The notes below the pieces were generated by a model that was not told the DNA's origin, searched no databases, and saw only the letters and a list, made by a program, of their open reading frames with translations. A stretch of DNA of 64,000 bases from positions 20,162 to 84,161 of the IMG/VR virus record IMGVR_UViG_3300019776_000583. One strand, 5' to 3'. Made by a program: the position numbers and the translations under genes. This document shows, in pieces, positions 2,956 through 46,110 of this stretch (position 1 is its first letter; every line of letters begins with the position of its first letter). This DNA is from a virus. Lineage: Duplodnaviria; Heunggongvirae; Uroviricota; Caudoviricetes.

Positions 2956-2956
2956 A

Positions 2957-28169: not shown

Positions 28170-31100
28170 ATGAAGAACAGCCTGACACCGTTCACCGCAG
28201 ATGACCTACTTGCCGCACCTCAATCCGGCCAGGCTTCTCAGCCGGAGAGCGGCACCGCTGCCATCTTCGATGCGCTGCTGTCGCAAGAGTCCGGCGGCCG
28301 GCAATTCGACAAGAATGGCGCCCCCATCACGAGCTCAGCTGGCGCCGTCGGCATCGCTCAGGTCATGGAGAAGACGGGGCCCGAGGCCGCTGCGCTGGCG
28401 GGCCTGCCGTGGGATCGGGATCGGTGGCAGCGCGACGCCGACTACAACAAGGCGATCGGCAACGCCTACTTTCAGAAGCAGCTGAACGAATTCGGAAACG
28501 TGCCTCAGGCGCTGGCTGCCTACAACGCAGGCCCTGGCGCGGTTCGGCGCGCGGTAGCACTTGCGCAGCGCGACGGCCAGCCGGACGCCTGGCTTGCAAA
28601 GCTGCCAGAGGAGACTCGAAGCTACGTGCCGGCCGTTCTGTCTCGTGCCGGCGTCCCGATGCCGGCCGGCGCAGCCGAGCCCGACAAGCAGTACTACGGC
28701 ACTCCGTCGAAGGAGTTCATCCCTCTCGCCTCCAGGAAGCCTGGAGCGACTGCCGGCGACTTCGTGCGCGAGTTCATCGCGTCTGGAGCCTCTGGCATTG
28801 GCTCGATCATTCAAGCTGGCGGAGAGGTGGCTGCAGCCGTGGCCAACAAGGTCAGCGGCACCAACGACTACGAGGGAAAGAACGTCTTCGCGGGGACTGC
28901 CGATTCACTGCGGCAGAACATGACGGAGGGCGGCCGAGCGGCCCTCGCAGACAGCAACATCGAGGGAAGCCTCGCCGACCTGTCTTTGGAGAAGCTGCCG
29001 AGCTCCCCCCAGGCCTGGGGGATGCTGACGGCAAACGTCCTTGGGTCATTGGCCTCGACGATGATCCCGATGGTCGGCCCGATGGCGCGCGTCGCATCTA
29101 CAGCCAAAGCTGGGGATGTTGCCCGCCTGGCATCCGCGTCTCGTACGGCAAAAGTGGCTGGCGCCGGATTCGGTGCTGCGCAGACCGGGGGCGCTGCTGC
29201 AGAAGAGGTTCGCAAGAGCGCCGAGAAGGCGATCTCCGGCATGACTCACGAGCAGCTGATGTCGTCAGTCCCGTCCTACGCTCAGGCGTTCGGCGAAACA
29301 GGCGACGAGGCTCAGGCAAGGTCTGCTGTTGTGAACTCCGCGGCGCAGCTCGCCGGCATGGGTGCGGCCGTGTTTGGTGCGGTCGGCGGCGCAGTCAACG
29401 CAAAGGTGATCGAAGACATCATCTTGAAGCAGGGCATCACGAAGATGCTCGGAAACAAGTTGCCGACGCGCCTCGCTGTTGGGGCCCCTGTTATTGGGAT
29501 GGCTGAAGGCGGGCAAGAGGTCTCCGAGAAGGTTGGGCAGAACATTGGTGAGGACCTGGGCCTCGGCCGAGATCCGATGGCTGACCCGCTGCGGGACACT
29601 GCTGGTGACTTCGTTGGCGGCATGATCGGCGGCAATGCTGTCGGCGGCGTTGCGGCGCTTCGGCGGCCTGAGATGGATCCCGTGGCGCGCAAGGCATCGG
29701 AGCCAAACAGCCCGTTGTCCAAGGCGGCAACTCAGGGTGTGATTGCCACCGATGCTGCGCCGCAGCCCGCGTCGCCAGCCCCCGTAGACCCGGCCCAGCG
29801 CCTGGCCGAGCTCGAGGCCATCGGCCAGCAGGGCGGCGTCTTCACGCCCGGGCAGCAGCAAGAATACGAGGCACTCAAGGGCGCCCGAGACGCTACCCCT
29901 GGCGCCGTGCCCGACGAGATCGGCCCGCGCGCCATGGCCGCTCGCGACGCCCTGCGCGTCGACCGCAGCCTGATGGATGCGCTGCGCGCAGACACCTCCC
30001 CCATCAAGCCCTCGGCCCTGCTGAAGGACCTGTCGATCGCCACTAGCAAGAGTGCTCAGCCCGCCATGCGCGAGCAGGCCCTGACGCGCGTCGAGATGGC
30101 AATGGAGTGGGCCAGAGCGAACCCGGCCCCGACGATCGAGACGGGGATCGAGGAGATCTCCGGCTTCTCCGGCGGCGAAGATCGCCCGACCGGCCCGCGG
30201 CCGACCGCGACTCAGCTGCGCGCCGGCGTCGACCGCGACGCCGAGCTGATTGGCCAGCGCGATGGCGGCCTGGCTAATCCGGCCGGCCAGCGCTCCCGCG
30301 ACGAGGCCGACCGCCGCGAGCAGGCCGCGATCGACATCGAGTCCGCGCCCAACGCTTCGCCCGAGGTGCTGGACCGCGCCGTAGCGCTGCGCCAGCAGGC
30401 CGCGAGCCTGCGCCGCCGGGCCGACGAGATGGACGCTCAGCCAGGCGCTGGCGGCACGTCTGGCGTTGGCTTTGCCCGCGACCGCGCCGGCATCGACGAG
30501 CAGCGCCAGGCAAACCTCGAGCGCAACATGCGCGCGCCGGCCGCTACGGCCGCTCCCGCCGCACCGGCGCCCGTCGCCGTCACAGCCACCGACCAGGCCC
30601 GCCTGGAGTCCGCAGCGCTGGCCGGCAAGGACGCCCAGCGCCGCGCTGAGGACAGCCCCCGCCAGGTCATCATCGACCGCGCGCTGCGCAACGTCGAGGA
30701 GCGCGGCGGCGTGGCCAGCCCGGCCGAGGCCCGAATCTTCCAGGAGGCCGGCGTCGGCAAGCCGTACGACCGCATCGACGAGAGCCTGGCCGGCGAGCCC
30801 TCGACCGACCAGCAGCTCACCGGCGCGACCGGCATCGCGCTGGGCCGCGCCCCGCGCGAGAGCTTGCGCCAGGGCCAGCAGTCCGAAGCCGACCTGATCG
30901 CCCGGGAGCAGCGCGACCGCAGCGACAGCCGCATGAAGGCTCTGGCCGCCGAGCGCGCCGCCACCCAGGCCGCACGCCCGGGCGAGAGGGCTGCAGCGCC
31001 GGCGCCCTCCGCCGACGACGTCATCGCCGCCCTGAAGACAATCCCGGCCCTCCGCACGGCCGAGCAGAAGTCGCTGGTCGACATCGCGCGCCGCAACTAC

Positions 31101-34100
31101 ACCGTCGAGCAGATGCGCGTCATGAACGATGCCGCCGTCAACCCGGCGAACCTGAGCGCGACCGACAAGTTGCAGCTGCAGCAGATCCGCAAGTCCGAGG
31201 AGCGTGACGCGGCGCTGCTGGCCCTGCCCGACGTCGCCATCCCGGCTGGCAATGGGCCCGCCTTCATCCGCAAGCGCAAGGCCCAGATCGAGGCCGCCGC
31301 TGCCCAGGGCTTCGAGACCGTTGAGCGCCGCGACGGCGTATTCGTGATTCGCAATTCGCGAACGGGCGCTGAGATGCGCCTGTCTGGCCGTGCCGACGCA
31401 GCGCTGGCCCGCGAGGCCATCCGCAAGATGGTCGACGAGCGAGCTCACGCCGCCGCCACCAGCCCGAAGAACGACCGCAAGGATCCCAGTTGGGCCCAGA
31501 TCGACGCGATCAACTGGAAGAAGGGTGACCCGATCCCATTGAACGGCGTGACCGTTCGCATCGAGAACCCCGTCGGCTCCATCCGCCGCGCACGCCCTGA
31601 TGCGCCGGTGCAGTGGAAGACCACGATGAAGCACCACTACGGCGAGATCGCCGGCACCAAGGGTGTCGACGGCGACCCGGTGGACGTCTTCGTGGGGCCG
31701 AACCCCGCAAGCCCGAAGATCTGGGTGATCGACCAGGTCACGGAGGGCGGCAAGCTCGACGAGCACAAGGTGATGTTCGGCTTCGACAGCGAGTCGGCCG
31801 CGCGCGCCGGCTACCTGTCGAACTTCAGCAGCGGCTGGAAGGGCCTGGGCAACATCACTGAGATGACCCAGGACGAGTTCCGCGCCTGGATCAAGGACCA
31901 GGGCGCCACGATGGCGCCGGCTGCCGAAGCCGCGCCGGCCCAGCAGGATGATGCTGAAAAGGCAACGACCGGCGCCGCAGAAGCGGCACCCGACATCGCC
32001 ACCGAAGTCGAGCCCGAATCCGGCTCGTTCACCGTCCGCATGGATGGCAAGAACGTGCGCTTCGAGCGCCGCGGTGTGGACGCGCTTGGAGAGACCGAGT
32101 CGCCTGAGCGAGACGGCAAGGCCACCCGCATCAGCAAGAAGTCTGCAGCACTCATCAAAGCCATCGCAAAGGCGCTGGGCAAGAAAGTCGTCTTCTTCGC
32201 TGACGTGAGCGGCGTGCGCCCTGGCGACGGCTTTGTGGTTCCGAACGAACCTAACACGATCTATTTGAATGAGATCTCAACGATCAGCCCTATGGCCGTC
32301 ATGGGCCATGAGTTCCTGCATACCCTTCGCCTGACCAACCCCAAGGCCTGGGACGCGATCGCGGCCGTCGTCAAGACCAGCGTGAAAGACCCCAAGGGAT
32401 TCCGCAAGGACTACTACGGCGCCGAGAAGGGCGAGAAGCGCGGAGACGGCGCGCTGAGCGAGGAGCAGGGCGGCGAGCTCGAGGAGCTGGTCTCCGACCT
32501 GGGTGGCAACCTGATGACCGACCCCAAGTTCTGGGAGGAGGTCTTCGCCAAGATCCGCGCCGACAACGGCAAGGACGCAAAGGGCATCATCGCCCGCCTG
32601 ATCGCGACGCTCCAGTCGATGATCGACAAGATCGCCGGCACGGTGAAGGGCCGGAAGTTCAAGGCCGACGACCCCGAGAATGGCTTCGTCACCGACCTCG
32701 ACTCCATCCGTGCGGCCTACCGCGACGGCCTGGCGGCCTACCTGCAGCAGAGCGGGGAGTCGAAGGCGGGCATGCAGGCGGAGGTGCTGAAGTCGCGGGG
32801 ACGCGTCGGATTCAGTGAGATTTCCAAGAAGTACCTGGAAGGCTGGCCGCCCGGCTTGCGCGTAGATTACCGCGGCACAGAGGCTTACTACGCAATCAAG
32901 CGATTGCCATACAACGACAACGCCAGCGCGCAGAAGGAGCTTGGCGTCAAGTTCAGTGGCGACATGATGGCGGACATCGGAGCTACCGTGGCGGCAGTTG
33001 CTGCGCGCGACGGATTCCCAGGACTTGATCGCGCACCTCGGATTCCCGTCTATAGCGCAATGCTCAGCGAGATGCAGCTGCGGCAGGCCGGTCGCGGCTA
33101 CATACAAGTTCTGCCCACCGTTGTGGATACAGAAAACGTAGAAACCCTCTACGTCAACTGGTCCAGCGGGTCCTCTGAAGATGAGGTTCGATCCGCCGCC
33201 AGGGCGGAGGCCGCCAACCAGCGCCTGAACAGGATCTTTTACGGGCCATCAAGCGGGGTTGTTTCAGGACTGGAGTCTGGCGCTGTATCGCGAGACCCGT
33301 CAGCCTGGGCGGAGGCGATGGCAACGGCACTCTCCGTGACGGCGCGAGCAACGCCCAAAAAGCAGTCGGCAGAGTGGGGGCGTTCATTTGGTGAGCGCAT
33401 GTGGTCCAGGATGCCTGACAAGTTCGTCGTGGGCGTCTTTGAGGATCTCGGCTCCGACCACCCCGACAAGAGAGCAGAGCTCGCCAAGTGGAGGGCCAGT
33501 GAGTCTGACCGCAAGGAGGCGGTGCGCGCAAATCGCGACTGGGAAAACCGCCCCCTGTACCAAAAGATCCTTGACGCCGTGCGCGGCACACGGGGCCCCG
33601 GATCTGACGAGGCACGCCGATCGCCAGAGCGCGGCATGACGGTCACCGGCTATCACTTTAGCCGCGAGCCTCGCAAGGCCCTGAGTTCAGCGACGCATGG
33701 CCAAGGTTTGCAGGACGCCAACCGCGAGCAGTTCCAGGACGCAGAAGACCAGCGCATTCGCCAGCGGATCTACTTCTACGTCGACAAGGGCACCGGCATC
33801 ACTCCGCTGCCAGGCCTTGGCACGCACGCTCACCGCACGAAGCTGTCTGGCGTGTACGACATGAACAAGGACGCGCTCGGCCTGAGGCGCGGGAAGTCTC
33901 TCGCGGACTTCGAGAGCTCTGTGCTGGACGCGGGGTACGATGGATACCTGGACCGCCGAGACGGCACGCAGCCTGGCGTCGTCATCATGCTGGGCAAGCG
34001 CTCGATCACCCCCGAGTACCTTGGAATGATGGGCTCGATCAAGGACGGTGAGAAGCTGCCTGGCGCAGTGGCCCCCGCGGTTGAGCGCCCCCCGATCTCC

Positions 34101-37100
34101 AAGGGATTGATGTCCAAGGAGATCGATGCCGTCGAGGTCGGAAACATCCCCGGCGCCCGCATGCGCGCAGGCACCCTGACGATCCCGGCCGACCAGGCCG
34201 AGGCCGCCAACGCCGAGATGGCGCGCATCGGCTCGTCCATCCGCTTCAGCAAGGAGCGCCTGGCCACCCCGGCGGAGCAGATCGAGGCCGTTCGCAAGAA
34301 GTACGAGGGCACCGATCAGTGGATGAAGTCGCCCAACGGGCGCCAGACAAACCTGTCGGAGCGCCAGTGGCTGCACGTGCGCACGCCGAGCTTCAAGAAG
34401 TGGTTCGGCGACTGGGAGAAGTTCGCTGCGATGCAGGGCGGCGTCTGGAATGACGCTAGCGGCGAGGTGTCAAAGGTCGTCAGCAGCAGCGGAGAGCCGC
34501 TGGTGGTCTACCACGGCACCGACAACGGCGGCTTCGCAGAGTTCTGGAAGCCCAGCGGAACCAAGCGCGGCGACCTCGGCATCTTCACGACAGACGACCT
34601 TCCGATGGCCGCGAGCTACGTGCATCTCGGCCGCGGGCGGATGCTTGGCGCCGGCGATATTTCGGAGTTTGGTGAACAGGACGCGCAGAAGCCTGGAATC
34701 TATGCGCTGTTTCTGAATATCCGAAAGCCGATCGAGAGAGACTTTGAGGGGGCCAACTGGGACGGTAGCCGCAACGGCCAGTTCATGGTGGTTGACGACG
34801 ACGGCGAGCAACTGTTCAAAGACGATGGTAGCGGGTACTTTGCAGACCACGGCGACGCCTTCGACCTGGTCATTCAAAAGGGCGGCAACATCGAGGAAGC
34901 CACCGACCACTACGAGTCGACAGACAGCGTCGTGCGCGAAGCACAGCGCGGCGGAAGCGATGGCGCGATCATCCGCCAGGTGGTGGACGAGGGTGGCGGT
35001 CGCAGCAGCTACGCGGGCGAGCCGAGCGACATCTTCGTCGCACTCGACCCGAACCAGGTGAAGAGCGCCGACTTCAACGGCGGCGAGTACAGCGTCACCG
35101 AGGACGACATCCGCAAGAGCGCGCCGCGCGAGCACATCCGCGTGCATGAGTTCGAGGTCAGCACTCGCACGCCGTACGCCAAGGAAACGAAGAACTTCAC
35201 GCCAGAGGACGCCCGCGCAAACCTTCTGATCAGCGACTTCGCCGCAGGCCTCGGCCAGGAGAAGTGGCTCAGCGCCGTCACCGAGCTGGTCGAGTCCTAT
35301 CCGAACTACCGCGCAGCGCCGAGCGCCGACACGCCCGAGAAGAAGCTCGAGCGCATAGTCCGCCAGATGGTGGAGAACCTGACGTGGCTGCACGACCGGG
35401 TGCCGGCTGCAACGCGCAGCCGCAGCAAGCTCTGGTATGACGGAGCCAACGCCATCGCGCAGCGCTGGGTGAAGAAGTACGGCATCACCGACGCCCAGGC
35501 GGCCGGCATCCTGGCCGTTCTGAGCCCGCAGAAAGACTGGTTCATGAACGTGAGCCTGGCCAACCGCGTGGCCGACATCCTGAGCGAGCGACAGGCCTTT
35601 CGATGGTCCAATCAGATGGACGAGACGGCCAGCCGGATCTTCGGCAATGAAGCCTACGACGAGGACATCGCCGAGATCCGCGGCGAGACGCTGCAGGACA
35701 TCGATGACCCGTACCTGCGCGCGATGTGGGTGCGCGTGTACGACCAGGCGCACAACTCGAGCTCGTTCTACATCGTCTCGCCGGAGGGCGACTTCATCGC
35801 CGAGGCGCGCACGAAGGGCGGCACCCTCGGGCGCGTGGCGTGGGGTGGAAACAGCACGATCGCCAAAGCTGTTTCGATCTTCGAGAACGGCAGCTTTGAG
35901 AACATCAGCACATCTCTCGGGCGGATGCACAAGGTCCGAAACTTCTACAACAACATCCTCGTGCCGAATAGCCCGAACGGGCACGTGACGATCGACACTC
36001 ATGCGGTGGCGGCCGCGCTGTTGCGCGCACTGTCTGGCAACTCGCTCGAGGTGAAGCACAACTTCAGCGGCCCCAGTAGCGCGCACGCCGGTCTGAAGGG
36101 TGTATACGCCCTCTACGAGGAGGCGTACCGGCGCGCTGCCGCAGAGCGCGGTATCCTCCCGCGCGAGATGCAATCGATCACGTGGGAGGCCATCCGCGGC
36201 CTGTACGTGCCAACATTCAAGGCCCAGGAGCGCAACGTCGACGCGATCGACGCGGTCTGGGACCGCTACAGCAAAGGACGCCTGAGCTATGAAAAAGCCC
36301 GACAACAAGTATTCGAGCTTGGTGGACGCATTGACCCCCCTAGCTGGGAAGGACGCGACCCTGGCGCGTATGTTGAAGATGAACCGGCCTCTGACGATGG
36401 AGACGTATCTGAGGATGGAGCATCCGCAGGGGATTCCTCCGATGACCGCGGAGCTGCTGGCAAGCGTGCCGGCGCCGCTGCGCGCCGGTCAGCAGAACGA
36501 GACGGAAGAGGACGGAATCAAGGCCGAGGCCTTACGCCGCTTGCGGGTGCGCCAGCTGTCCAAGGCGCGGCCGGTCCCGACCCCCGACTCGTCGAAGTAG
36601 CAGAGCGCTACGCGGCAGCGCGCGGCATCAAGCTGCGCCGCCAGGCCGAGTACGTCGGCGTCGATGAAGGGCGCGCACGCCGCATCGCGGCCGCCTACGA
36701 CGCCATGCCACACGCGCCGCAGGACCCCAAGGTCAAGGCAGCCTACGCCAGCCTGATCGAGCAGACTGTCGCGCAGTACAAGGCGCTCGAGGCGGCCGGC
36801 TATCAGTTCTACCTGTTCGACGAGACCAACGACCCATACAAGGGCAACCCGTGGAACGCCATGCGCGACCTGCGGGTCAACAAGGTGATGGGGGTCTTCG
36901 CGACAGAGGCTGGCTTCGGCAGCAGCGACCTGGACGTCGCCGACAACCCGCTGCTTGCGGACACTGGCATCAAGTGGCCGTGGGGTGTTACCGACGGCGA
37001 GCCGAAGCGCGTGCTGGCCAACGACCTGTTCCGCGCCGTTCATGACGCCTTTGGCCACGGCCTGGAGGGCGCCGGCTTCCGTGCGCAGGGCGAGGAGAAC

Positions 37101-37499
37101 GCATGGCAGGCTCACGTGCGGCTGTTCGATGGCCCAGCGCTCGGCGCCATCACAAGCGAGACGCGCGGCCAGAACTCCTTCCTCAACTACGGCCCCAACG
37201 GCGACAAGAACCGCGGCGCCAAAGTAGAGGACACCATCTTCGCCGACCAGAAGACGGGGCTCATGCCGGAGTGGACCTGGCAAGAGGGACGCGCTGCCGA
37301 CGAGGTGTCGTTCGAGCCCGACCAGGACCTAATCGACCTGTTCGAGGACCTTGGCGCGATGGGCCAGCGCAAAGCCCGCGCCGAGACTGCGGCAAGTGCC
37401 CACCCTCAGGCCCAGAAGATCAAAGAAGTCAACGACAATATCCTCGACCTGCTGCAGGAGTTGGAAGACTCCGGGAGCTTGACGATCAACTGCGACTAA
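28170..37499 (+). CDS. Giant polyvalent virion protein (3109 aa): N-terminal lytic transglycosylase (SLT), HExxH zincin-like motif, inorganic-pyrophosphatase-like domain, YHGT-motif domain
   Basis: Single uninterrupted 9.3-kb ORF with coding bias. SLT motifs ESGG...GIAQVM...AYNAGPG at the N-terminus. MGHEFLHTL. DGDPVDVFVG...DEHKV. VVYHGTDNGGFAEF. Confidence 0.85.
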   Translation: MKNSLTPFTADDLLAAPQSGQASQPESGTAAIFDALLSQESGGRQFDKNGAPITSSAGAVGIAQVMEKTGPEAAALAGLPWDRDRWQRDADYNKAIGNAYFQKQLNEFGNVPQALAAYNAGPGAVRRAVALAQRDGQPDAWLAKLPEETRSYVPAVLSRAGVPMPAGAAEPDKQYYGTPSKEFIPLASRKPGATAGDFVREFIASGASGIGSIIQAGGEVAAAVANKVSGTNDYEGKNVFAGTADSLRQNMTEGGRAALADSNIEGSLADLSLEKLPSSPQAWGMLTANVLGSLASTMIPMVGPMARVASTAKAGDVARLASASRTAKVAGAGFGAAQTGGAAAEEVRKSAEKAISGMTHEQLMSSVPSYAQAFGETGDEAQARSAVVNSAAQLAGMGAAVFGAVGGAVNAKVIEDIILKQGITKMLGNKLPTRLAVGAPVIGMAEGGQEVSEKVGQNIGEDLGLGRDPMADPLRDTAGDFVGGMIGGNAVGGVAALRRPEMDPVARKASEPNSPLSKAATQGVIATDAAPQPASPAPVDPAQRLAELEAIGQQGGVFTPGQQQEYEALKGARDATPGAVPDEIGPRAMAARDALRVDRSLMDALRADTSPIKPSALLKDLSIATSKSAQPAMREQALTRVEMAMEWARANPAPTIETGIEEISGFSGGEDRPTGPRPTATQLRAGVDRDAELIGQRDGGLANPAGQRSRDEADRREQAAIDIESAPNASPEVLDRAVALRQQAASLRRRADEMDAQPGAGGTSGVGFARDRAGIDEQRQANLERNMRAPAATAAPAAPAPVAVTATDQARLESAALAGKDAQRRAEDSPRQVIIDRALRNVEERGGVASPAEARIFQEAGVGKPYDRIDESLAGEPSTDQQLTGATGIALGRAPRESLRQGQQSEADLIAREQRDRSDSRMKALAAERAATQAARPGERAAAPAPSADDVIAALKTIPALRTAEQKSLVDIARRNYTVEQMRVMNDAAVNPANLSATDKLQLQQIRKSEERDAALLALPDVAIPAGNGPAFIRKRKAQIEAAAAQGFETVERRDGVFVIRNSRTGAEMRLSGRADAALAREAIRKMVDERAHAAATSPKNDRKDPSWAQIDAINWKKGDPIPLNGVTVRIENPVGSIRRARPDAPVQWKTTMKHHYGEIAGTKGVDGDPVDVFVGPNPASPKIWVIDQVTEGGKLDEHKVMFGFDSESAARAGYLSNFSSGWKGLGNITEMTQDEFRAWIKDQGATMAPAAEAAPAQQDDAEKATTGAAEAAPDIATEVEPESGSFTVRMDGKNVRFERRGVDALGETESPERDGKATRISKKSAALIKAIAKALGKKVVFFADVSGVRPGDGFVVPNEPNTIYLNEISTISPMAVMGHEFLHTLRLTNPKAWDAIAAVVKTSVKDPKGFRKDYYGAEKGEKRGDGALSEEQGGELEELVSDLGGNLMTDPKFWEEVFAKIRADNGKDAKGIIARLIATLQSMIDKIAGTVKGRKFKADDPENGFVTDLDSIRAAYRDGLAAYLQQSGESKAGMQAEVLKSRGRVGFSEISKKYLEGWPPGLRVDYRGTEAYYAIKRLPYNDNASAQKELGVKFSGDMMADIGATVAAVAARDGFPGLDRAPRIPVYSAMLSEMQLRQAGRGYIQVLPTVVDTENVETLYVNWSSGSSEDEVRSAARAEAANQRLNRIFYGPSSGVVSGLESGAVSRDPSAWAEAMATALSVTARATPKKQSAEWGRSFGERMWSRMPDKFVVGVFEDLGSDHPDKRAELAKWRASESDRKEAVRANRDWENRPLYQKILDAVRGTRGPGSDEARRSPERGMTVTGYHFSREPRKALSSATHGQGLQDANREQFQDAEDQRIRQRIYFYVDKGTGITPLPGLGTHAHRTKLSGVYDMNKDALGLRRGKSLADFESSVLDAGYDGYLDRRDGTQPGVVIMLGKRSITPEYLGMMGSIKDGEKLPGAVAPAVERPPISKGLMSKEIDAVEVGNIPGARMRAGTLTIPADQAEAANAEMARIGSSIRFSKERLATPAEQIEAVRKKYEGTDQWMKSPNGRQTNLSERQWLHVRTPSFKKWFGDWEKFAAMQGGVWNDASGEVSKVVSSSGEPLVVYHGTDNGGFAEFWKPSGTKRGDLGIFTTDDLPMAASYVHLGRGRMLGAGDISEFGEQDAQKPGIYALFLNIRKPIERDFEGANWDGSRNGQFMVVDDDGEQLFKDDGSGYFADHGDAFDLVIQKGGNIEEATDHYESTDSVVREAQRGGSDGAIIRQVVDEGGGRSSYAGEPSDIFVALDPNQVKSADFNGGEYSVTEDDIRKSAPREHIRVHEFEVSTRTPYAKETKNFTPEDARANLLISDFAAGLGQEKWLSAVTELVESYPNYRAAPSADTPEKKLERIVRQMVENLTWLHDRVPAATRSRSKLWYDGANAIAQRWVKKYGITDAQAAGILAVLSPQKDWFMNVSLANRVADILSERQAFRWSNQMDETASRIFGNEAYDEDIAEIRGETLQDIDDPYLRAMWVRVYDQAHNSSSFYIVSPEGDFIAEARTKGGTLGRVAWGGNSTIAKAVSIFENGSFENISTSLGRMHKVRNFYNNILVPNSPNGHVTIDTHAVAAALLRALSGNSLEVKHNFSGPSSAHAGLKGVYALYEEAYRRAAAERGILPREMQSITWEAIRGLYVPTFKAQERNVDAIDAVWDRYSKGRLSYEKARQQVFELGGRIDPPSWEGRDPGAYVEDEPASDDGDVSEDGASAGDSSDDRGAAGKRAGAAARRSAERDGRGRNQGRGLTPLAGAPAVQGAAGPDPRLVEVAERYAAARGIKLRRQAEYVGVDEGRARRIAAAYDAMPHAPQDPKVKAAYASLIEQTVAQYKALEAAGYQFYLFDETNDPYKGNPWNAMRDLRVNKVMGVFATEAGFGSSDLDVADNPLLADTGIKWPWGVTDGEPKRVLANDLFRAVHDAFGHGLEGAGFRAQGEENAWQAHVRLFDGPALGAITSETRGQNSFLNYGPNGDKNRGAKVEDTIFADQKTGLMPEWTWQEGRAADEVSFEPDQDLIDLFEDLGAMGQRKARAETAASAHPQAQKIKEVNDNILDLLQELEDSGSLTINCD

Positions 37500-37508
37500 C
37501 GAACAAAA

Positions 37509-38015
37509 ATGCCAATCCAGCCCAAAAGCGACATTTGCCAGGAGCGACTGCATCAGCTGTTCGTGTACGACGAACAGACGGGCATTTTCACGCGCCGCAT
37601 CAGCCGGCGCTGCGCAAAGGCGGGCTCCGTTGCCGGGTGTCGATCCACCGACGGGTACTGGCAAATCTCAATCAGCGGCTCCGTCTATAGAGCCCATCGC
37701 CTTGCGTGGCTGTATGCGCACGGAACCTGGCCCACAAATCAGATCGATCACATTGACGGCAACCGGCTGAACAACAGGATCACCAACCTTAGGGATGTGC
37801 CTCAATCCACCAACATGCTGAACATTCACGCCCCGGGGTCCGCCAACACGACAGGCTTTCGTGGCGTGTTCTTTGATCGCAATAGCGGCACATTTTCGTA
37901 CTCTGTCAGAGTCAAAGGTCGAGACGGGGTCGGTAGCGGGTTCAAGGATGCGATGACAGCGCATCAGGGGTATTTGCTCAGGAAAGAAATTATGATCGGA
38001 GAAGCGCGCCAATGA
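37509..38015 (+). CDS. HNH homing endonuclease with an AP2-type DNA-binding domain
   Basis: HRLAWLYAHGTWPTNQIDHIDGNRLNNRITNLR is an HNH signature. GFRGVFFDRNSGTFSYSV is AP2-like. Confidence 0.8.
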   Translation: MPIQPKSDICQERLHQLFVYDEQTGIFTRRISRRCAKAGSVAGCRSTDGYWQISISGSVYRAHRLAWLYAHGTWPTNQIDHIDGNRLNNRITNLRDVPQSTNMLNIHAPGSANTTGFRGVFFDRNSGTFSYSVRVKGRDGVGSGFKDAMTAHQGYLLRKEIMIGEARQ

Positions 38016-41000
38016 AGTCTTGCAGCTACACCTTCCGCGGCCCCGACGGCGAGAACGTCGTTCTTCGTGGCATGGCCGCCATCAAGGCATTCCTGGCCAG
38101 CGGAGGGCTGGAGTACCTGCGGGCGCCGGAGGTGAGCAGGACCACTGAGCGCGACGTCACGCAGACGCCCGAGTTCAAGCGCTGGTTCGGCGACAGCGTC
38201 ATGACCGTTGACGGCAAGCCCGGCGGCAAGCCGCTGACGCTGTACCACGGCGGCTTCCCCCTTGTTGATCAGCCGCCCGGCAAGGGCATCCCCAAGGCCA
38301 GCACGCGGGGTGCTCTGGGCTACGGCTTCTACATGACCCCCGATGAAGGTCGCGCCGAGATGTACGCCGGCGAGTCCGGCGGCTGGGGTCGCCCCGACGG
38401 CAAGGTCACAGCGCTCTATGCCCGCCTGCTGAACCCACTGGTGATCGAGCACGACGACAAGCAAGACCCGGTCATCACGGGCCTGGTTGCCGCCGGCATG
38501 CCGCGCGACAAGGCAATCAAGAAGGTCGAGAAGGCCAACGAGGAGCACGGCTGGACCGGCAAGGAGCTGATGTCTGCCGCCACCAAGGCCAGCCACGACG
38601 GCGTCGTGCTCAAGCGCGGCGGCAAGATCTCCGAGGTCGTCACCTACCAGCCGACCCAGGTCAAGAGCGCCATCGGCAACGACGGCTCGTTCTCGTGGAG
38701 CCCCGACATCCGCAAGAGCGCCGAGCGCCACTGGTACAGCCAGCTCGAGCGCGCGATTGAAGGCGTCCCCGCGCGCCTGGACAACCAGTCGGCCGTGCAG
38801 TGGTCGCAATGGCTCAAGGCCAACGCCAGCAAGCTCGGCGTCAAGCAAGACGAGGTGACCTGGTCCGGCATCGAGGACTGGCTCAAGCTCAAGGGCAAGG
38901 AGAAGGTCTCGAAGGCGGAGATCGGCGAGTACCTGGCCGAGGGCGGCGTGCGGGTTGAGGAGACGGTTCTGGGTGACGGCGATCGCTGGACCAGAATGGA
39001 TACCGGGGAGAGCACTCAAAACGAGGATGTGGCAAGGCAATGGGCTTCGTCCGGCGTTGACTTCAACTACGACAAGTCCAGCACCAAATACAGCCAATAC
39101 ACCCTCCCCGGCGGCACGAACTACCGCGAGGTGCTGCTGACGCTGCCGGAGCCCAAGCTCGCAGAGATCGAGCCATGGACCGTCGGACGCATGCGCTCCA
39201 GCAAGGACAAGCTGCTGGACATGGGTTTCTCGCAGTTGGCGATAGACACGGCCATTGCAAAGGCGACCGAGACCGGAGGCGTGGAGTCCGCGCTGCGCGC
39301 CATGGACGCCAAGGTTGCGTCCGGCACGGCCAGCCAGGGCCAGCGAGAGGCGGCTCAGCTGCTGCGCGGCATGGCGTCCGGTGAGCGCAAGAACAAGGAG
39401 GCGCGCCTGGTTGCACTGGCAAAGGCGGGCTACAAGTCAGGCCACTGGGACCAGAAGAACGTGCTCGCGCACATTCGCCTCAACGACCGCGTCGATGCCG
39501 ACGGCAAGCGCGTGCTGTTCGTCGAGGAGCTGCAGAGCGACTTCGCGCAAGACGCTCGCAAGAAAGGCATTCAGTCCAGCTACAAGCTGGAGGACGTGCA
39601 ACTCACCGATGGTCCGCTTCCGGCGACCTTCTACTACATCAAGACACCCGACAACGTCTTCCAGATCCTGAAGTCGCAGCACTCCAGCGAGCAGGCTGCG
39701 CGCGAGTACATCGTCCGCGAGAAGAAGATCAATAGCGGCGGCGTTCCGAGCGCCCCCTTCATCGACGACACCACCAAGTGGCTCAACCTTGCCATGAAGC
39801 GAGTCATCAAGCTGGCGGTGGACGATGGCTACGATGCCGTCGCGTTTGTGAACGGCGAGCAGAGTGCTGATCGGTATGACCTGAGCAAGCAAATCAGCAA
39901 GGTGCTTTGGAATGAAGACACAAAGAGGCTGACGGCCTACGACAAGAACACATCCGAGCGCCGCACCAGTGGCCGCGCAGTCATTGATGAGAGCGATGTG
40001 ACTGCAGATCGACTTGAAGATTATGTTGGCAAGGATGTTGCCAAGAAGCTGCTGGAAATGACGCCGGACGAGGATGGCGACAGATCGCTTTCCGGCCTCG
40101 ACCTCAAGGTCGGCGGCGAAGGCATGAAGGCCTTCTACGACAAGATCGTGCCGCAGGCGGCCGGCGGCCTGGTGAAGAAGATGGGCGGGGAGGGGATGAC
40201 GAAGGTGACTCTGCCCAAGATGCCGGGCGGCCGGGCTGTGGTGCGCAATGGAGTCGAGATCAAGACGATTGGCGACATTCAACAGCCCGGCTTCCTCGTC
40301 ACCGACGAGATGCGCGACAAGGCCTCCGGCGGCATGCCGCTGTTCAGCCGCGAGCGACAGACCGACACAGAAGCCTTCAAGAATTGGTTCGGCGACAGCA
40401 AGGTCGTCGATGCCGGGGGCAAGCCGCTGGTTGTGTACCACGGCACGGCAGAGGACTTTGCTGAGTTTGACCCGACGCGCGCCGGCCGCAACTACTTCAG
40501 CTCCGGCGCCCGCCGCGGCATGTTCTTCACCAGCAACCCCGGCACCGCAAGCGTGTACGCCGAGAAGCCGTCTGGCGCGTACCTGAACCCGTCAGATCCG
40601 GAGCGGGCCGACTTCGGCCGCGGCACAGCCACGATCATGCCTGTGTACCTGTCGCTGCAGAATCCGCTGGTCATCAGCACGAAGAAGTCGCCCGACAAGT
40701 TCTTCGACGGGAGGTGGGAGGACATCTTTTCGCGTGTCGAAGCCCGCGGTCACGACGGCGCGATCATTCGCGGAGGTGCGGAGTTCAAGCGCGATCTGTA
40801 TGTGGCCTTGGAGCCCACCCAGATCAAGTCCGCAATCGGCAACACTGGCGCCTTTGCGACTGACAATCCGGACATTACCAAGTCTACCGAGCGCGCCGCG
40901 ATGGGCCTCAACGAGAGCCGCCTCGACCGCGTCATGAACGAGTGGGGCTACACCAGCGGCAAGTCTCGAGCCGCGCTGACCTACATCGATCCGAGCGACT

Positions 41001-44000
41001 TCCTCGCTGCGACCACCGAGTCTCCTGAGGCGATAGAGCGCATCCGCCGCGAGGCTGGTGAACTCGACATGGGCAACCTCACTTCGGAGTCGCAGACCCC
41101 GTTCCTGAAGGTTGAGAAGCGCTCCAACGACAAGGAGTGGCGCATCGTTGGCCACGAGGGTCGGCACCGCATGGCCGCCCTGCAGAAGGCCGGCTACAAC
41201 CAAGTACCGATCGTGCTGTACCAGTACGGCGCGACTGACGACTTCGGCGCCAAGATCTCTGGCCAGAGGCTGATGGGCCAAGACTTCGAGTACGTCGGTC
41301 CCGGATCTCGCGGGCAAGACATTGTCCTGGGCGAAGCCACCTCAATCACATTCGACAACAAGGCGAAGATTGCCGATGAGTTCGGTCGCGGCGACGCGCA
41401 GTTCTCTCGCGAGCGCACCGACACGCCCGAGTTCAAGCGCTGGTTCGGTGGCAGCGTTCTCACCGACAACGACAGCCGCCCGATGGTTATGTACCACCAG
41501 ACCAAGAGCGACTTCTCTGAATTCAAGCCCGGAGGCAACGACGCCACGCTCAGCGGGCCGGCGATATGGGTTCGGCCGGACCCATCAGTCATGGCCTCTG
41601 GCCACAACACCGGCACGCGCCGCAAGGGCCAGTTCCAACCCGGAACGCGCGAGATTCCTCTGTATGTGCGCCTGACAAACGCACTCGGCAGCAACAGCTC
41701 CAACTGGAGAGAGGTATACGGCCAGTTCAAGAGCAAGGGCAATAGCCCCTGGCTGATGGATCAGGCGTTCATCGATGAACTGAAGTCGAAGGGCTACGAC
41801 GGGGTGATGCACCTCAGCAATGACGGCGAGATGGAGGAAGTGGCCGTCTTCGACGCCAACCAGGTCAAGAGCGTCTTCAACGACGGTAGCTTCGACGAGA
41901 CCGACTCCAACATCCTCTCCAGCGCCGCGCGCAACTGGCAGACGCCAGGCGCCTCCAAGTTCGATGATGCCGTCCAGAAGTTCCAGGACAAGAACGTCGA
42001 CCTCCTCCGCGTGCAGCAGGCCCTGAAAGAGGCTGGCGTCGAGATCGCCAACGATCGCGACGCATACCTGAAGGAGGAGCTCTTCCACGGCCGTGCTGCC
42101 AAGCGCACCGAGGACTTCACCAAGAAGGAGCTCGAGCCCTTGACGAAGGCCATGGCTGACCGCGGCCTGACCATCGAGGAGCTCGACGAGTACCTGCACG
42201 CTCGCCACGCAAAGGAGGCGAACGACCTCGTAGCCGAGCGCAACCCAGACAGCCAGGACCTCCAGGACGGCGGGTCCGGCATGAAGTCCAAGGATGCCCA
42301 GGACTACTTGGCTGGCCTGCCATCCGACAAGCGAGAGCACCTGGCTGCCGTCGCCGCACAGGTCGACAAGATGCTGGCCAGGACGCGCCAGCTCATGGTC
42401 GACTACGAGCTCGAGGGCGCAGACACGGTCAAGGGCTGGGGCGAGATGTTCCAGCACTACGTGCCGCTGATGCGCGAGGACGATGGCGACGCGCCGTCCG
42501 GCCTTGGTATGGGCCAGGGCTTCAGCATCAAGGGCCGCGAGGTCAAAAGCCGCACCGGCTCGACGAAGAAGGTCGTCGACATCCTGGCCAACATCGCGCT
42601 GCAGCGCGAGCGCGTGATCGTGCGCGGCGAGAAGAACCGCGTCGGCCAGGCGCTGGTGAACTTGGCTCGCGAGAACGAGAACAAGGACTTCTGGACCGTC
42701 GACCTGACGCCCACGACGCCGACCTACGACCCCAAGAAGGGCGTCGTGGTGCAGCGGCCGGACCCGATGTTCAAGATGCGACCCAACGTGCTGGTGGCCA
42801 AGTTCAAGGAGGCCGACGGCAGCGTCAAGGAGCACGCTGTCATCTTCGACGAGAAGGACTCCCGCGCCGTGCGCGCCGCCGCCTCGCTGAAGAACCTCGA
42901 GGCTGCCCGCATGGAGGGCTTCCTGGGTGGCGCAGCGGCGGTCACCCGCTACTTCAGCGCGATCGTCACCCAGTACAACCCGGTCTTCGGCGTCATCAAC
43001 TTCATGCGCGACTTCCAGGCCGTGATGCTCAACCTGAAGAGCACCCCGCTGGATGGTAAGCAGAAGCAGATCGCCGCCGACTCGATGCGCGCGGTGAAGC
43101 AGATCTACTCGAACCTGCGCAGCGGCAAGGACACCGGCGACCTGCAGAAGCTCTTCGACGAGTTCCGCGACGCCGGCGGCCAGACTGGCTTCCGCCAGCT
43201 CTACGCCGACAGCGCCGACCGCGCCGACGCCATCCGTGAGGCCATCAACCCTGACGCCTGGACCGACACCAAGCTGGGCAAGATCTTCACCGCCAACGGC
43301 GTCTTGAAGGTCCCCATGGCCAAGGCTATGCGCGCGTCGAAGGGCGTCTTCCAATGGCTCACCGACTACAACGACACTCTCGAGAATGCCACCCGCCTGG
43401 CAGTCTACAAGGCCGGCAAGGAGCAGTTCCTGTCGGAGGGCCTGGGAGAGACTGAGGCCCGCGAGAAGGCCGCCAGCATCGCCAAGAACATCAGCGCCAA
43501 CTTCAACCGCAAGGGCGAGCTGGGCCAGCAGATCGGCGCTCTCTACGCCTTCTTCAACGCCAGCGCGCAGGGCACAGCCCGCCTGGGCCAGCTGCTCTTC
43601 GACATGGAGCCCGGCAAGCCCAAGACAATCCGCCTGTCGCGCGTCGGCAAGCGCATCGTGACCGGCGGCGTGCTGCTGGGCGTGGCGCAGGCGCTGGCGC
43701 TGTCTGCCGCCGGCTTCAGCGACGATGATCCGCCGGAGTTCGTTCGCGAGCGGTCGATCGTGATCCCGACCGGCGGCAAGAGCTACATCTCGATCCCCAT
43801 GCCGCTGGGCCTGCACGTGCTACCCAACCTGGGCCGCGTGACGACCGAGTGGGCCATGGGTGGCTTCGACAAGACGCCGCAGCGCGCCGTAGCCATGGTT
43901 GGCCTGCTGGCCGAGGCCTTTGTGCCGACCGGATCCAGCGGCCTTTCGATGCAGACGCTGGCGCCTACCGCGGTGGACCCACTGGTGGCGCTGACCGAGA

Positions 44001-44629
44001 ACAAGGACTGGCAGGGCCGGCCGATCGCCAAGGAGAGCATGAACCCGGCGATCCCGGGCCATGCGCTGGTGAAGGACACAGCGACAGCCTGGTCGCGCGT
44101 GATGGCCGAGGCGATCAACTACGCCACCGGCGGCAACCATTACCTGCGCGGTGCGGTGAGCCCGACCCCGGACCAGCTCGACTACCTGATCTCCGCCCTG
44201 GGCGGCGGGGTGGCCAACGAGATCTCCAAGGCCCAACAGACCGGCTCTAGCCTGGCCACCGGCGAGTCATTGCCGACCTACAAGATCCCGCTGGTGGGCC
44301 GCCTGATCGGCAACGCCGCCAGCCAGCAGAGCGAGGGCACGGCCTTCTACTCCGCGTCGCGCAAGCTGAACGAGCTGGAGACGGAGATCAAGGGCCTGCA
44401 GAAGGACGGTAGGAGCCAGGAGGCGGCCGCACTGCGCGCCTCGCGGCCGGACGCCTACCTCATGGCCCAGGTCAACCGGGCCGAGAGAGACATCTCGAAG
44501 CTGCGCAAGGAGAAGAGCTCGCTGATTGAGTCTGGCGCACCGCGCGAACAGGTTCGCGCAGTGGAGGAGAAGATCACCGCGCGCATGGCGGCCTTCAACC
44601 GGGCCTTCGACCAGATGCAGCCTCGGTAG
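38012..44629 (+). CDS. Giant polyvalent virion protein (2205 aa) carrying three tandem copies of the FKxWFGDS...YHG[TG] domain and a hydrophobic C-terminal region
   Basis: ATGA overlap with the HNH gene. Uninterrupted 6.6-kb ORF. Three paralogous roughly 200-aa modules, each beginning TPEFKRWFGDS / EAFKNWFGDS / TPEFKRWFGGS and ending QVKSAIGN / QIKSAIGN / QVKSVFND. Confidence 0.85.
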   Translation: MKSCSYTFRGPDGENVVLRGMAAIKAFLASGGLEYLRAPEVSRTTERDVTQTPEFKRWFGDSVMTVDGKPGGKPLTLYHGGFPLVDQPPGKGIPKASTRGALGYGFYMTPDEGRAEMYAGESGGWGRPDGKVTALYARLLNPLVIEHDDKQDPVITGLVAAGMPRDKAIKKVEKANEEHGWTGKELMSAATKASHDGVVLKRGGKISEVVTYQPTQVKSAIGNDGSFSWSPDIRKSAERHWYSQLERAIEGVPARLDNQSAVQWSQWLKANASKLGVKQDEVTWSGIEDWLKLKGKEKVSKAEIGEYLAEGGVRVEETVLGDGDRWTRMDTGESTQNEDVARQWASSGVDFNYDKSSTKYSQYTLPGGTNYREVLLTLPEPKLAEIEPWTVGRMRSSKDKLLDMGFSQLAIDTAIAKATETGGVESALRAMDAKVASGTASQGQREAAQLLRGMASGERKNKEARLVALAKAGYKSGHWDQKNVLAHIRLNDRVDADGKRVLFVEELQSDFAQDARKKGIQSSYKLEDVQLTDGPLPATFYYIKTPDNVFQILKSQHSSEQAAREYIVREKKINSGGVPSAPFIDDTTKWLNLAMKRVIKLAVDDGYDAVAFVNGEQSADRYDLSKQISKVLWNEDTKRLTAYDKNTSERRTSGRAVIDESDVTADRLEDYVGKDVAKKLLEMTPDEDGDRSLSGLDLKVGGEGMKAFYDKIVPQAAGGLVKKMGGEGMTKVTLPKMPGGRAVVRNGVEIKTIGDIQQPGFLVTDEMRDKASGGMPLFSRERQTDTEAFKNWFGDSKVVDAGGKPLVVYHGTAEDFAEFDPTRAGRNYFSSGARRGMFFTSNPGTASVYAEKPSGAYLNPSDPERADFGRGTATIMPVYLSLQNPLVISTKKSPDKFFDGRWEDIFSRVEARGHDGAIIRGGAEFKRDLYVALEPTQIKSAIGNTGAFATDNPDITKSTERAAMGLNESRLDRVMNEWGYTSGKSRAALTYIDPSDFLAATTESPEAIERIRREAGELDMGNLTSESQTPFLKVEKRSNDKEWRIVGHEGRHRMAALQKAGYNQVPIVLYQYGATDDFGAKISGQRLMGQDFEYVGPGSRGQDIVLGEATSITFDNKAKIADEFGRGDAQFSRERTDTPEFKRWFGGSVLTDNDSRPMVMYHQTKSDFSEFKPGGNDATLSGPAIWVRPDPSVMASGHNTGTRRKGQFQPGTREIPLYVRLTNALGSNSSNWREVYGQFKSKGNSPWLMDQAFIDELKSKGYDGVMHLSNDGEMEEVAVFDANQVKSVFNDGSFDETDSNILSSAARNWQTPGASKFDDAVQKFQDKNVDLLRVQQALKEAGVEIANDRDAYLKEELFHGRAAKRTEDFTKKELEPLTKAMADRGLTIEELDEYLHARHAKEANDLVAERNPDSQDLQDGGSGMKSKDAQDYLAGLPSDKREHLAAVAAQVDKMLARTRQLMVDYELEGADTVKGWGEMFQHYVPLMREDDGDAPSGLGMGQGFSIKGREVKSRTGSTKKVVDILANIALQRERVIVRGEKNRVGQALVNLARENENKDFWTVDLTPTTPTYDPKKGVVVQRPDPMFKMRPNVLVAKFKEADGSVKEHAVIFDEKDSRAVRAAASLKNLEAARMEGFLGGAAAVTRYFSAIVTQYNPVFGVINFMRDFQAVMLNLKSTPLDGKQKQIAADSMRAVKQIYSNLRSGKDTGDLQKLFDEFRDAGGQTGFRQLYADSADRADAIREAINPDAWTDTKLGKIFTANGVLKVPMAKAMRASKGVFQWLTDYNDTLENATRLAVYKAGKEQFLSEGLGETEAREKAASIAKNISANFNRKGELGQQIGALYAFFNASAQGTARLGQLLFDMEPGKPKTIRLSRVGKRIVTGGVLLGVAQALALSAAGFSDDDPPEFVRERSIVIPTGGKSYISIPMPLGLHVLPNLGRVTTEWAMGGFDKTPQRAVAMVGLLAEAFVPTGSSGLSMQTLAPTAVDPLVALTENKDWQGRPIAKESMNPAIPGHALVKDTATAWSRVMAEAINYATGGNHYLRGAVSPTPDQLDYLISALGGGVANEISKAQQTGSSLATGESLPTYKIPLVGRLIGNAASQQSEGTAFYSASRKLNELETEIKGLQKDGRSQEAAALRASRPDAYLMAQVNRAERDISKLRKEKSSLIESGAPREQVRAVEEKITARMAAFNRAFDQMQPR

Positions 44630-45015: not shown

Positions 45016-46110
45016 GTGGCAAGCATCAAGCAAATGGGCCCGAAGTCCTGGCGCGTGCAGATCCGACGCAAGGGACACAAGACGATCACCAAGACCCTCA
45101 CCACTGAGCGGCTGGCCAAGCAGTTCGCCGCAAGGGTAGAGGGTGACATCGAAGACGGCAAGCCGCCCACCGTCGGCACGGACATCACGGTCAGCCAGGC
45201 AGTCGAGGCCTTCCGGGAGCTGCGCGACACCGGCCAGCGCCCAGTGGCGCGCGGCTCGACCGAGTTCTACATGCTGCGCCATCTCGAGGAGGGCATGGGC
45301 GGCTGGAGGGTCGATGCGGTGACGCCGCAGAGGCTGGCCTCCTGGGCCCGCTCGCGCATGGACGAGGGCGCCGGCCCAGCCACCATCGGCATGGAGGTCT
45401 CCAAGCTGGGCACCGTGATGCGGCACGCCAGCGCGTGGCTGCGCACGCCGCTGCCAGACATCGTGGCGCCGGCCCGGGCGCTGCTCGAGTATTCAGGCCT
45501 GGTGGGCCCCAGCCAACACCGAGAGAGGCGGCCCACAGAGGACGAGTTGGTCCGGCTACTCGAGATCGCTGACCCGACGATGCAGGACCTGATGCTGGCC
45601 GCCATCCTGACGACGATGCGCCGCGGCGAGCTCACGCGCATCCTGTGGGCGGACCTAGACGAGGAGCGCAAGCTGGTCCTGATCCGCGACCGCAAGCACC
45701 CACGCAAGAAGCAGGGAAACCACATGTGGTGCCCGCTGCTGGGTGACGCGATGAAGGTGCTGAAGCGCCAACCCCACGTCGACGAAAGGATCTTCCCGGT
45801 CGACAACGAGTGGGTCAGCGACACCTTCAAGGCGATGTGCGACCAGCTTGGGATTGAGGACCTGCACTTTCACGACCTGCGTCATGAAGGCACGAGCCGG
45901 CTATTCGAGGCCGGCTACCGGATCGAGCAGGTCCGCCTGGTGACAGGCCACAAGAAGCTCGAGAACCTGATGCGGTACACCAACCTCAGGCCAGAGCACC
46001 TTTCTTCGCCGCCGCCCGTTTTTGGTCCAGGTAATCCGCCACGTCTCGGTGGTCAGCCCAGCGCTGCCCCTGATCCAGGTACGTCGGGATCGGAAATCGA
46101 TCCTCGCTGA
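45016..46110 (+). CDS. int: Tyrosine recombinase / phage integrase
   Basis: GGAGG Shine-Dalgarno and GTG start. N-terminal arm-binding-like domain. C-terminal HDLRHEGTS (HxxR) and LMRYTNL (catalytic Tyr). Unusual ~45-aa C-terminal extension. Confidence 0.9.
   Translation: MASIKQMGPKSWRVQIRRKGHKTITKTLTTERLAKQFAARVEGDIEDGKPPTVGTDITVSQAVEAFRELRDTGQRPVARGSTEFYMLRHLEEGMGGWRVDAVTPQRLASWARSRMDEGAGPATIGMEVSKLGTVMRHASAWLRTPLPDIVAPARALLEYSGLVGPSQHRERRPTEDELVRLLEIADPTMQDLMLAAILTTMRRGELTRILWADLDEERKLVLIRDRKHPRKKQGNHMWCPLLGDAMKVLKRQPHVDERIFPVDNEWVSDTFKAMCDQLGIEDLHFHDLRHEGTSRLFEAGYRIEQVRLVTGHKKLENLMRYTNLRPEHLSSPPPVFGPGNPPRLGGQPSAAPDPGTSGSEIDPR

Follow-up and report, generated by a model that had tools for sequence, protein, structure and literature searches.

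Two giant genes and a domain present in four copies

This work concerns two giant genes, referred to here as P1 and P2, which lie close to each other on a 64,000-nucleotide stretch of DNA (the window, i.e., the whole stretch that was analysed) belonging to a virus of the class Caudoviricetes (IMG/VR record IMGVR_UViG_3300019776_000583, positions 20,162 to 84,161). Both are intact open reading frames (ORFs) located on the same strand, and together they account for 16.46 kb, that is, 25.7% of the 64-kb window. An earlier note on this DNA had described them as two polyvalent virion proteins of 3109 and 2205 amino acids (aa) covering about a quarter of the window and sharing a domain repeated four times, once in P1 and three times in P2; the coordinates that it gave are exact. 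The two genes and the four copies of the domain, which belongs to the ADP-ribosyltransferases (ARTs), are the following, the residues of each copy being listed in the order His, strand-2 aromatic, helix Tyr position and Asp:

28170..37499, + strand: P1 polyvalent protein gene, intact ORF, 3109 aa; Pfam SLT, InPase, ART-PolyVal and DUF7178
38012..44629, + strand: P2 polyvalent protein gene, intact ORF, 2205 aa; Pfam ART-PolyVal (three copies) and LPD38
34377..35084, + strand: ART-PolyVal copy 1, P1 aa 2070-2305; 55.3 bits; H2115, F2139, Y2150, D2264; inserts of 19 and about 50-70 aa
38159..38686, + strand: ART-PolyVal copy 2 (P2a), P2 aa 50-225; 54.9 bits; H79, Y107, Y118, D196
40361..40849, + strand: ART-PolyVal copy 3 (P2b), P2 aa 784-946; 80.6 bits; H810, F838, Y849, D915
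41417..41890, + strand: ART-PolyVal copy 4 (P2c), P2 aa 1136-1293; 56.7 bits; H1162, W1186, H1198, D1263; the most divergent copy

The copies were scanned one by one, and each of the four singly exceeds the curated gathering threshold of the Pfam family PF18760 (ART-PolyVal), which is 31.2 bits, so that all of them can be assigned to this family. The four-fold repetition is equally clear when the copies are compared with each other: pairwise BLASTP comparisons gave E-values between 7e-5 and 7e-18, with 25-36% identity, and the four-way alignment contains 17 invariant columns, including those of the motifs F-K-x-W-F-G, Y-H, D-G and Q-x-K-S. The four ARTs are old paralogues, with mutual identities of 25-32%. 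The segment of P1 that the earlier note had proposed for testing the repeat (aa 1830-2060) was misplaced, since it misses the repeat (aa 2070-2305) by about 200 residues.

The class of polyvalent proteins was defined by Iyer, Burroughs, Anand, de Souza and Aravind in 2017 (PMC5512222), who placed ART-PolyVal in the Tox-ART-HYD2 clade, with a His on strand 1, a Tyr on strand 2 and an Asp on strand 5 (PMC5512222). Stand-alone homologues were collected and an alignment of 69 sequences was built, free-standing ART-PolyVal proteins of 150-300 aa being common. The analysis of this alignment revealed that His36 is conserved in 68 of the 69 sequences, Asp141 in all of them, and the Q, K and S of the QxKS motif in 68 each; the invariant His and Asp and the QxKS motif are kept in all four copies of P1 and P2. 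The strand-2 position is occupied by Phe in 38 sequences, Tyr in 24 and Trp in four and, in the proteins studied here, by Tyr in P2a, Phe in both the P1 copy and P2b, and Trp in P2c. Thus, on the basis of the alignment, the conserved feature at strand 2 seems to be an aromatic residue rather than Tyr specifically, and the triad of the family reads as H-aromatic-D and not as H-Y-E.

The structure of P2b was predicted with AlphaFold2 (AF2), with a mean pLDDT of 90.3 and a pTM of 0.85. In the model, the His closes strand 1 (VVYHG) and the Asp comes directly before strand 5, and it is there that ARTs have their catalytic residues. When the model was compared with the PDB by Foldseek, the top 50 matches were all ARTs (tankyrase 1 and 2, PARP2, PARP4, cholix toxin and diphtheria toxin), with E-values near 1e-3 and TM-scores of 0.28-0.46, and the P2b model can therefore be considered as having an ART fold. 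The model also matches an ejection protein of cyanophage A4 (PDB 9k3a chain B), its best structural neighbour; this chain is probably A4 gp27, as judged from the molecule name and the length. The proposal that the repeats are ART-like and represent cargo of polyvalent proteins is thus sustained both by the family assignment of all four copies and by the fold of P2b. Since the fold matches are to ARTs only and the repeats align with each other with significance, neither of the two outcomes that had been set beforehand as evidence to the contrary (a non-ART fold, and repeats failing to align) was observed.

Further domains and gene neighbourhood

Besides the ART copy, P1 contains a number of other recognizable regions. 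For these regions, as for all those described below, the related loci used for comparison are 41 loci obtained from a scan of IMG/VR, designated by L and a number.

28245..28568, + strand: SLT lytic transglycosylase, P1 aa 26-133; Pfam PF01464, 1.8e-12; PDB Slt70-type lytic transglycosylases, 3e-8
29007..29669, + strand: Gly/Ala-rich, moderately hydrophobic region, P1 aa ~280-500; 18% Ala, 14% Gly; Kyte-Doolittle peaks at aa 387-419
31494..31895, + strand: InPase (inorganic pyrophosphatase), P1 aa 1109-1242; Pfam PF18823, 4.7e-44
32016..32864, + strand: putative zincin-like metallopeptidase region, P1 aa 1283-1565; HExxH (MGHEFLHTL) at aa 1380-1384 (32307-32321)
33624..34040, + strand: conserved domain, P1 aa 1819-1957, GxHFS...YFYV...AGYxGY; 26 invariant columns over 5 loci; no Pfam match
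35286..36200, + strand: DUF7178 region, P1 aa ~2373-2677; Pfam PF23802, 7.9e-30
36579..37376, + strand: conserved C-terminal domain, P1 aa ~2804-3069; phrog_3170

In the SLT domain, the catalytic E40-S41 and the motifs GIAQ and AYNAG can be seen in the sequence. It is followed by the Gly/Ala-rich region, for which a role in membrane insertion is only inferred, and then by a long low-complexity stretch (P1 aa ~520-1090, positions 29727-31439) in which Ala (20%), Arg (11%), Glu and Gln abound, with a local G+C content (GC) of up to 71%, probably an extended helical linker. The segment that had been likened to an inorganic pyrophosphatase is indeed an InPase domain. Together with about 120 preceding residues (P1 aa 986-1247, positions 31125-31910), it resembles the C-terminal third of PDB 9b41_L, 'gp19 Portal' (6e-34). 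In phages of Xanthomonas, Xylella and Achromobacter, the InPase-containing module bears the label 'minor head protein' or 'portal'. This match and these annotations suggest, at the sequence level, that the InPase module moves between portal fusions and polyvalent proteins. Homologue searches performed with shorter P1 queries returned mostly InPase-only proteins.

As for the HExxH motif, which had been read as zincin-like, its presence and conservation are clear, and the domain is a putative zincin: GHExxH and a downstream EExxxD are invariant in the homologues of six related loci, and the AF2 model of the region (obtained from a 2-sequence alignment, pLDDT 71.5) consists of a helix, three strands, the HExxH helix, more helices and a helix carrying the Glu. 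This is the same order of elements as in the zincin core described by Iyer et al. (PMC5512222), and on the basis of the model the region looks zincin-like. In the class defined by Iyer et al., a zincin-like MPTase domain is a frequent hub, although its presence is not required.

The conserved domain at P1 aa 1819-1957 was also considered as a possible fifth, degenerate ART, on account of its GYHFS...IYFYV...GYDGYL motifs. This was rejected: the ART hidden Markov model gave no match even with the filters off, and the hhalign probability was 1.8%. For the DUF7178 region, the identity with phage proteins from Roseobacter and Rhodobacteraceae is 35-42%. The C-terminal domain of P1 is 45-75% identical to cyanophage and uncultured-phage segments annotated as 'lysin' or 'large polyvalent protein'; no Pfam match was found in the C-terminal region, and a PDB sequence search with aa 2791-3109 returned nothing.

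The regions of P2 located outside the ARTs are the following:

38702..40363, + strand: large conserved module, P2 aa 231-784 (~550 aa); matched at 29-55% identity in >25 IMG/VR loci
40859..41416, + strand: possible ParB/Srx-like segment, P2 aa 950-1135; motif RIVGHEGRHRMAAL (GHEGRHRMAA); weak Pfam ParB_N match, E 0.22
41909..44626, + strand: conserved C-terminal module, P2 aa 1300-2205 (~900 aa); phrog_14770, 3.4e-188; phrog_616, 1.6e-94
43655-43711, + strand: hydrophobic helix, P2 aa 1882-1900; hydropathy peak 1.85
43724-44296, + strand: LPD38, P2 aa 1905-2095; Pfam, 1.1e-38

The first of these modules (aa 231-784) gave no match in Pfam, NCBIfam or PHROG, nor did a PDB sequence search with aa 225-790; its distribution among loci marks it, as far as sequence comparison can tell, as a widespread, still unnamed polyvalent-protein domain. 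The segment at aa 950-1135, tentatively ParB-like from its motif, lacks a homologue in all of the ~50 related loci that were fetched, and together with the adjacent ART copy P2b it looks like a lineage-specific gain of a module. The C-terminal module is the part of P2 that is widely conserved: the tblastn identity is 50% with phage Dartukuta, 39.5% with Methanosarcina virus MetMV and 30% with Stx-phage giant proteins. Two or more unrelated effector domains, the combination by which Iyer et al. (2017) recognized polyvalent proteins, are therefore found in both P1 (SLT, InPase, ART and DUF7178) and P2 (three ARTs and LPD38).

The genes lying around and between P1 and P2 are the following:

11313-13775, + strand: portal / head-tail adaptor-like gene, upstream of P1
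15172-16185, + strand: major head protein, upstream of P1
17246-18675, + strand: virion structural proteins, upstream of P1
18677-20302, + strand: 'internal virion protein', upstream of P1
20299-22959 and 24757-25371, + strand: tail-fibre genes, upstream of P1
25368-26330, + strand: further virion structural protein, upstream of P1
37509..38015, + strand: free-standing HNH endonuclease, 168 aa, between P1 and P2; Pfam HNH_3, 4.4e-17; phrog_99, 4.8e-52
45016..46110, + strand: tyrosine integrase, directly 3' of P2; phrog_1, 5.7e-48; Pfam Phage_integrase recorded for the source contig
46324-47139, - strand: Band_7 / lipoprotein-like gene, after the integrase, on the opposite strand

P1 and P2 thus form the end of a same-strand structural block, i.e., they have the location of late virion genes, and the integrase comes next. 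Since structural genes lie upstream and an integrase directly follows P2, the element is a temperate tailed phage. No tRNA genes were found within the window. Capsid proteins that share 39-43% identity with the one encoded here occur in Pseudoalteromonas podophage Y3, Pseudomonas phage Rollin, Xanthomonas phage DES1 and Stenotrophomonas phage StenR_269; Rollin and DES1 each harbor a gene of >2100 aa late in the structural block. When the 16.5-kb region was compared by megablast with 50,697 phage records, no match was obtained; no cultured phage is known to be a close relative, and those used here for comparison are the IMG/VR loci. The exact P2 sequence is on record in a single 86-kb metagenome scaffold. 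A contig scan aimed at the host returned only metagenome bins of unrelated phyla, and these matches are probably mis-binned phage contigs.

The HNH gene, which the earlier note does not mention, follows the stop codon of P1 after 9 nucleotides (nt), and at its other end it shares an ATGA stop-start overlap with P2. Its GC is 56.4%, vs 64-66% in the neighbouring genes, and its GC at third codon positions is 69%, vs 82-87%. In all the related loci, among them L002, L003 and L004, the junction lacks this gene. Because of this lower GC and of its absence from the related junctions, it is probably a recently acquired free-standing homing endonuclease. The possibility that it split a single ancestral gene can be ruled out: L002-L004 harbor the same two genes, separated by gaps of 3-12 nt, with no HNH gene, which makes the HNH gene an intergenic insertion.

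Variation among related loci

The adjacent pair of giant genes is therefore shared with L002, L003 and L004, and in L005 the modules of both P1 and P2 are found inside one ORF of 3988 aa; in the light of this fusion, P1 and P2 are best seen as one functional unit. P1 is collinear with the giant ORFs of L002-L005, with a block-wise identity of 40-74%, and P2 is 54-70% identical to its homologues in the same loci. The number of ART copies per related locus ranges from one to five when matches of at least 60 bits are counted, and weaker partial matches raise some of these counts.

The four copies differ in their degree of conservation. The P1 copy has orthologues with 60-69% identity in L002, L003 and L004, and P2a has an orthologue with 80% identity in L002, whereas P2b is without any close orthologue, the best match being 45% identical (in L006). 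A sharp change is found at P2c: when the window positions 41417-42200 (P2 aa 1136-1400) were compared with L002 positions 14867-16000, P2c proved to be 19-42% identical to its positional homologue and the next 100 aa, beginning just after aa 1300, to be 96% identical. This step suggests, from the alignment, either the replacement of a cassette or a very fast local divergence (hypervariability). An exact DNA match of 26 nt, ACGCCCGAGTTCAAGCGCTGGTTCGG, is present at the 5' borders of both P2a (38165-38190) and P2c (41423-41448), and it could represent a microhomology for recombination between cassettes. From these comparisons, the ARTs behave as exchangeable cassettes among related phages.

Predicted role and comparison with known systems

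The reading that we consider likely, although not beyond doubt, is that P1 and P2 are phage-type polyvalent proteins that are packaged, ejected and deliver ART and other effectors. Both proteins would be packaged in the capsid as internal (ejection) proteins and, during infection, would leave it along with the DNA. The SLT domain at the start of P1 would cut the peptidoglycan, and the hydrophobic helix and LPD38 C-terminal module of P2, possibly along with the Gly/Ala-rich region of P1, would engage the envelope. The cargo acting in the cell would comprise the four ART-PolyVal domains, the InPase, the probable zincin peptidase and several further, unassigned domains; the putative peptidase may cut the chain into working units. 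The four ARTs would transfer ADP-ribose from NAD+ to host targets, which might be protein or nucleic acid. Since they are diverged paralogues and each of them keeps the invariant His and Asp, their targets are probably different. By analogy, packaging would find support in the InPase homologue fused to a portal in PDB 9b41_L and in the motif that A4 gp27 carries inside a solved virion. As for the terms 'virion protein' and 'injected', which the earlier note had applied to P1 and P2, we infer them from gene position and precedent.

Several points weigh against this reading. Virion location and enzyme activity are, for this phage, read from genes alone, and the window contents do not appear to fix the tail morphology. 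The fold model covers one of the four copies (P2b), and its match with A4 gp27 is at the level of the fold, the likeness in sequence being only at the level of a motif (2.8 bits). Of the nominal H-Y-D triad, the Tyr expected on strand 2 is present in P2a only, the three other copies having Phe or Trp at that position, and in P2c the helix Tyr is missing as well; weak activity, or none, is thus conceivable for some ART copies. The processing step depends on the assignment of the HExxH region as a zincin, which is without statistical support. Lastly, among the papers searched, three name the ART-PolyVal family and none describes its biochemistry.

Three alternative explanations were considered. 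The ART-like domains might be mainly structural, i.e., pseudo-enzymes forming an internal capsid core (pre-ejectosome) that organizes the DNA and the ejection conduit. The best structural neighbour of P2b is indeed a structural component of the A4 pre-ejectosome, where gp26 and gp27 make up the outer ring and touch the DNA (PMC12002296), and the substitutions at the triad Tyr, together with the missing helix Tyr of P2c, would be in keeping with such a role. However, the near invariance of His and Asp in 69 diverse members, and their retention along with QxKS in four of four copies, is typical of active sites, the alternation of Phe and Tyr at strand 2 would fit an aromatic residue stacking on a ligand, and the common free-standing proteins of 150-300 aa are a poor fit for a purely structural role in a giant core; we thus regard this explanation as improbable. 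Even less credit can be given to the idea that P1 and P2 are not packaged and act in the producing cell, as late cytoplasmic effectors or as lysis or superinfection-exclusion factors. Packaging is, it is true, a prediction, and the two genes end the late block beside an integrase, a frequent site of morons and accessory genes; but the N-terminal lytic transglycosylase and the conserved C-terminal module with its hydrophobic helix are features of ejection proteins, giant genes located after the tail-fibre genes recur both in relatives and in phages whose capsid protein is related, and InPase and ART-like domains are present inside solved virions.

A further possibility leaves the packaging model as it is and concerns the targets only: the ARTs might act on nucleic acids or small molecules, by a DarT-like ADP-ribosylation of DNA or RNA or by interfering with NAD+-linked immune signalling. 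The presence in the same proteins of a pyrophosphatase and of a possible ParB-like nucleotide-binding segment would agree with it. Nevertheless, the closest fold neighbours (tankyrase, PARPs and exotoxin A) are protein-modifying ARTs, and Iyer et al., drawing on the analogy with T4 Alt, expect the targets to be proteins (PMC5512222). The present results do not separate the two classes of targets, and on balance we hold targets of this kind to be unlikely.

A broader proposal is advanced tentatively, and we consider it rather doubtful. According to it, ART-PolyVal domains would be hot-swappable effector cassettes, each bracketed by the conserved junction motifs TPxFKxWFG... (5') and ...QxKSAxGNxG (3') and exchanged by recombination; each would ADP-ribosylate a different host defence component, and their fold would at the same time serve as a building element of the podophage pre-ejectosome (A4 gp27). 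The identity step at P2c, the 26-nt match, the variable copy number and the A4 fold match are compatible with it. The exchange would be much like the tip swapping of polymorphic toxins, and the HNH endonuclease located between the giant genes might promote it.

Of all phage proteins, polyvalent proteins are believed to be those that a host cell encounters first. The locus, with four diverged, apparently intact ART copies in one phage, is a reasonable test bed for the study of targets and of paralogue specificity. Its interest lies in a family that has apparently never been studied biochemically, in the sharp cassette boundary at P2c and in the fold link to a solved pre-ejectosome.

When compared with the diphtheria-toxin/PARP group of H-Y-E ARTs, the family shares the fold, the strand-1 His embedded in a literal YHGT and, with diphtheria toxin, aromatic residues at the positions of toxin Y54 and Y65. 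A comparison of the family profile with diphtheria toxin pairs YHGT (H21), GFYST (Y54) and AAGY (Y65) of the toxin with YHGT, GxFFT and AxxY, although this match is not significant (E 0.23). The acidic residue is different, being an invariant Asp in G-[HY]-D-G, and no catalytic Glu was found; moreover, the C-terminal QxKS motif is specific to the ART-PolyVal family. The suggestion that YHGT recalls diphtheria-toxin-like H-Y-E enzymes was therefore right as to the motif and the fold but does not extend to the acid, to the strand-2 residues (F, Y, F and W) or to a significant sequence match. T4 Alt is a packaged ART that enters the cell along with the DNA, modifies host proteins and is the functional model for polyvalent ARTs (PMC5512222), and the predicted delivery of the ARTs described here would be of the same type; Alt, however, is a single-domain protein of the R-S-E (Alt/VIP2) clade, whereas the ARTs described here have an H-aromatic-D triad and are embedded in giant multidomain proteins.

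P1 resembles T7 gp16 in its very large size, in the place of its gene in the structural module and in starting with a lytic transglycosylase (aa 26-133), and each of the two is presumed to pass through the envelope before the DNA does. T7 gp16 is not known to carry ART, InPase or LPD38 domains. Among the Pfam and PHROG matches of P1 there is no gp16-like family; the T7 gp16-type start that had been proposed thus stands for the SLT domain (1.8e-12), while no homology to gp16 was found beyond it, and the likeness is a functional analogy only. A4 gp27 shares with the ART copies the YHGT...GxYF[ST] motif (YHGT...GSGTYFS, aa 1425-1462) and is, like the proteins proposed here, a large ejection protein, that of A4 having been solved in place inside a podophage capsid; it differs in having a single domain of this type and in giving no Pfam match, and the A4 paper describes no ART domain (PMC12002296).

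The closest correspondence is with the class of Iyer et al. ARTs are the most common protein-modifying domain of polyvalent proteins, in which they occur in one to many copies; examples of ART-PolyVal are the virion RNA polymerase (vRNAP) of Roseovarius Plymouth podovirus 1 and the Pseudomonas aeruginosa prophage protein WP_023121221.1, which contains 12 ART copies (PMC5512222). An exhaustive HMMER search with P2b returned 15,759 representative clusters (50% identity, E at most 1e-3), including giant proteins with up to 22 matched stretches; four ART copies across two proteins are thus unremarkable. The ART family, the presence of several ART copies per protein, the location among late virion genes, the association with InPase, LPD38 and a peptidoglycan hydrolase, and the predicted co-injection of effectors with the DNA are all the same. 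What differs is the domain order, the distribution over two adjacent genes with an HNH gene between them, and the conserved modules without a family (P1 aa 1819-1957 and 2804-3069; P2 aa 231-784); vRNAP, helicase and methylase modules were not detected in P1 or P2. Rather than a new kind of system, the locus presents an architecture, a multi-copy arrangement and a proposed mechanism that had all been described already in 2017.

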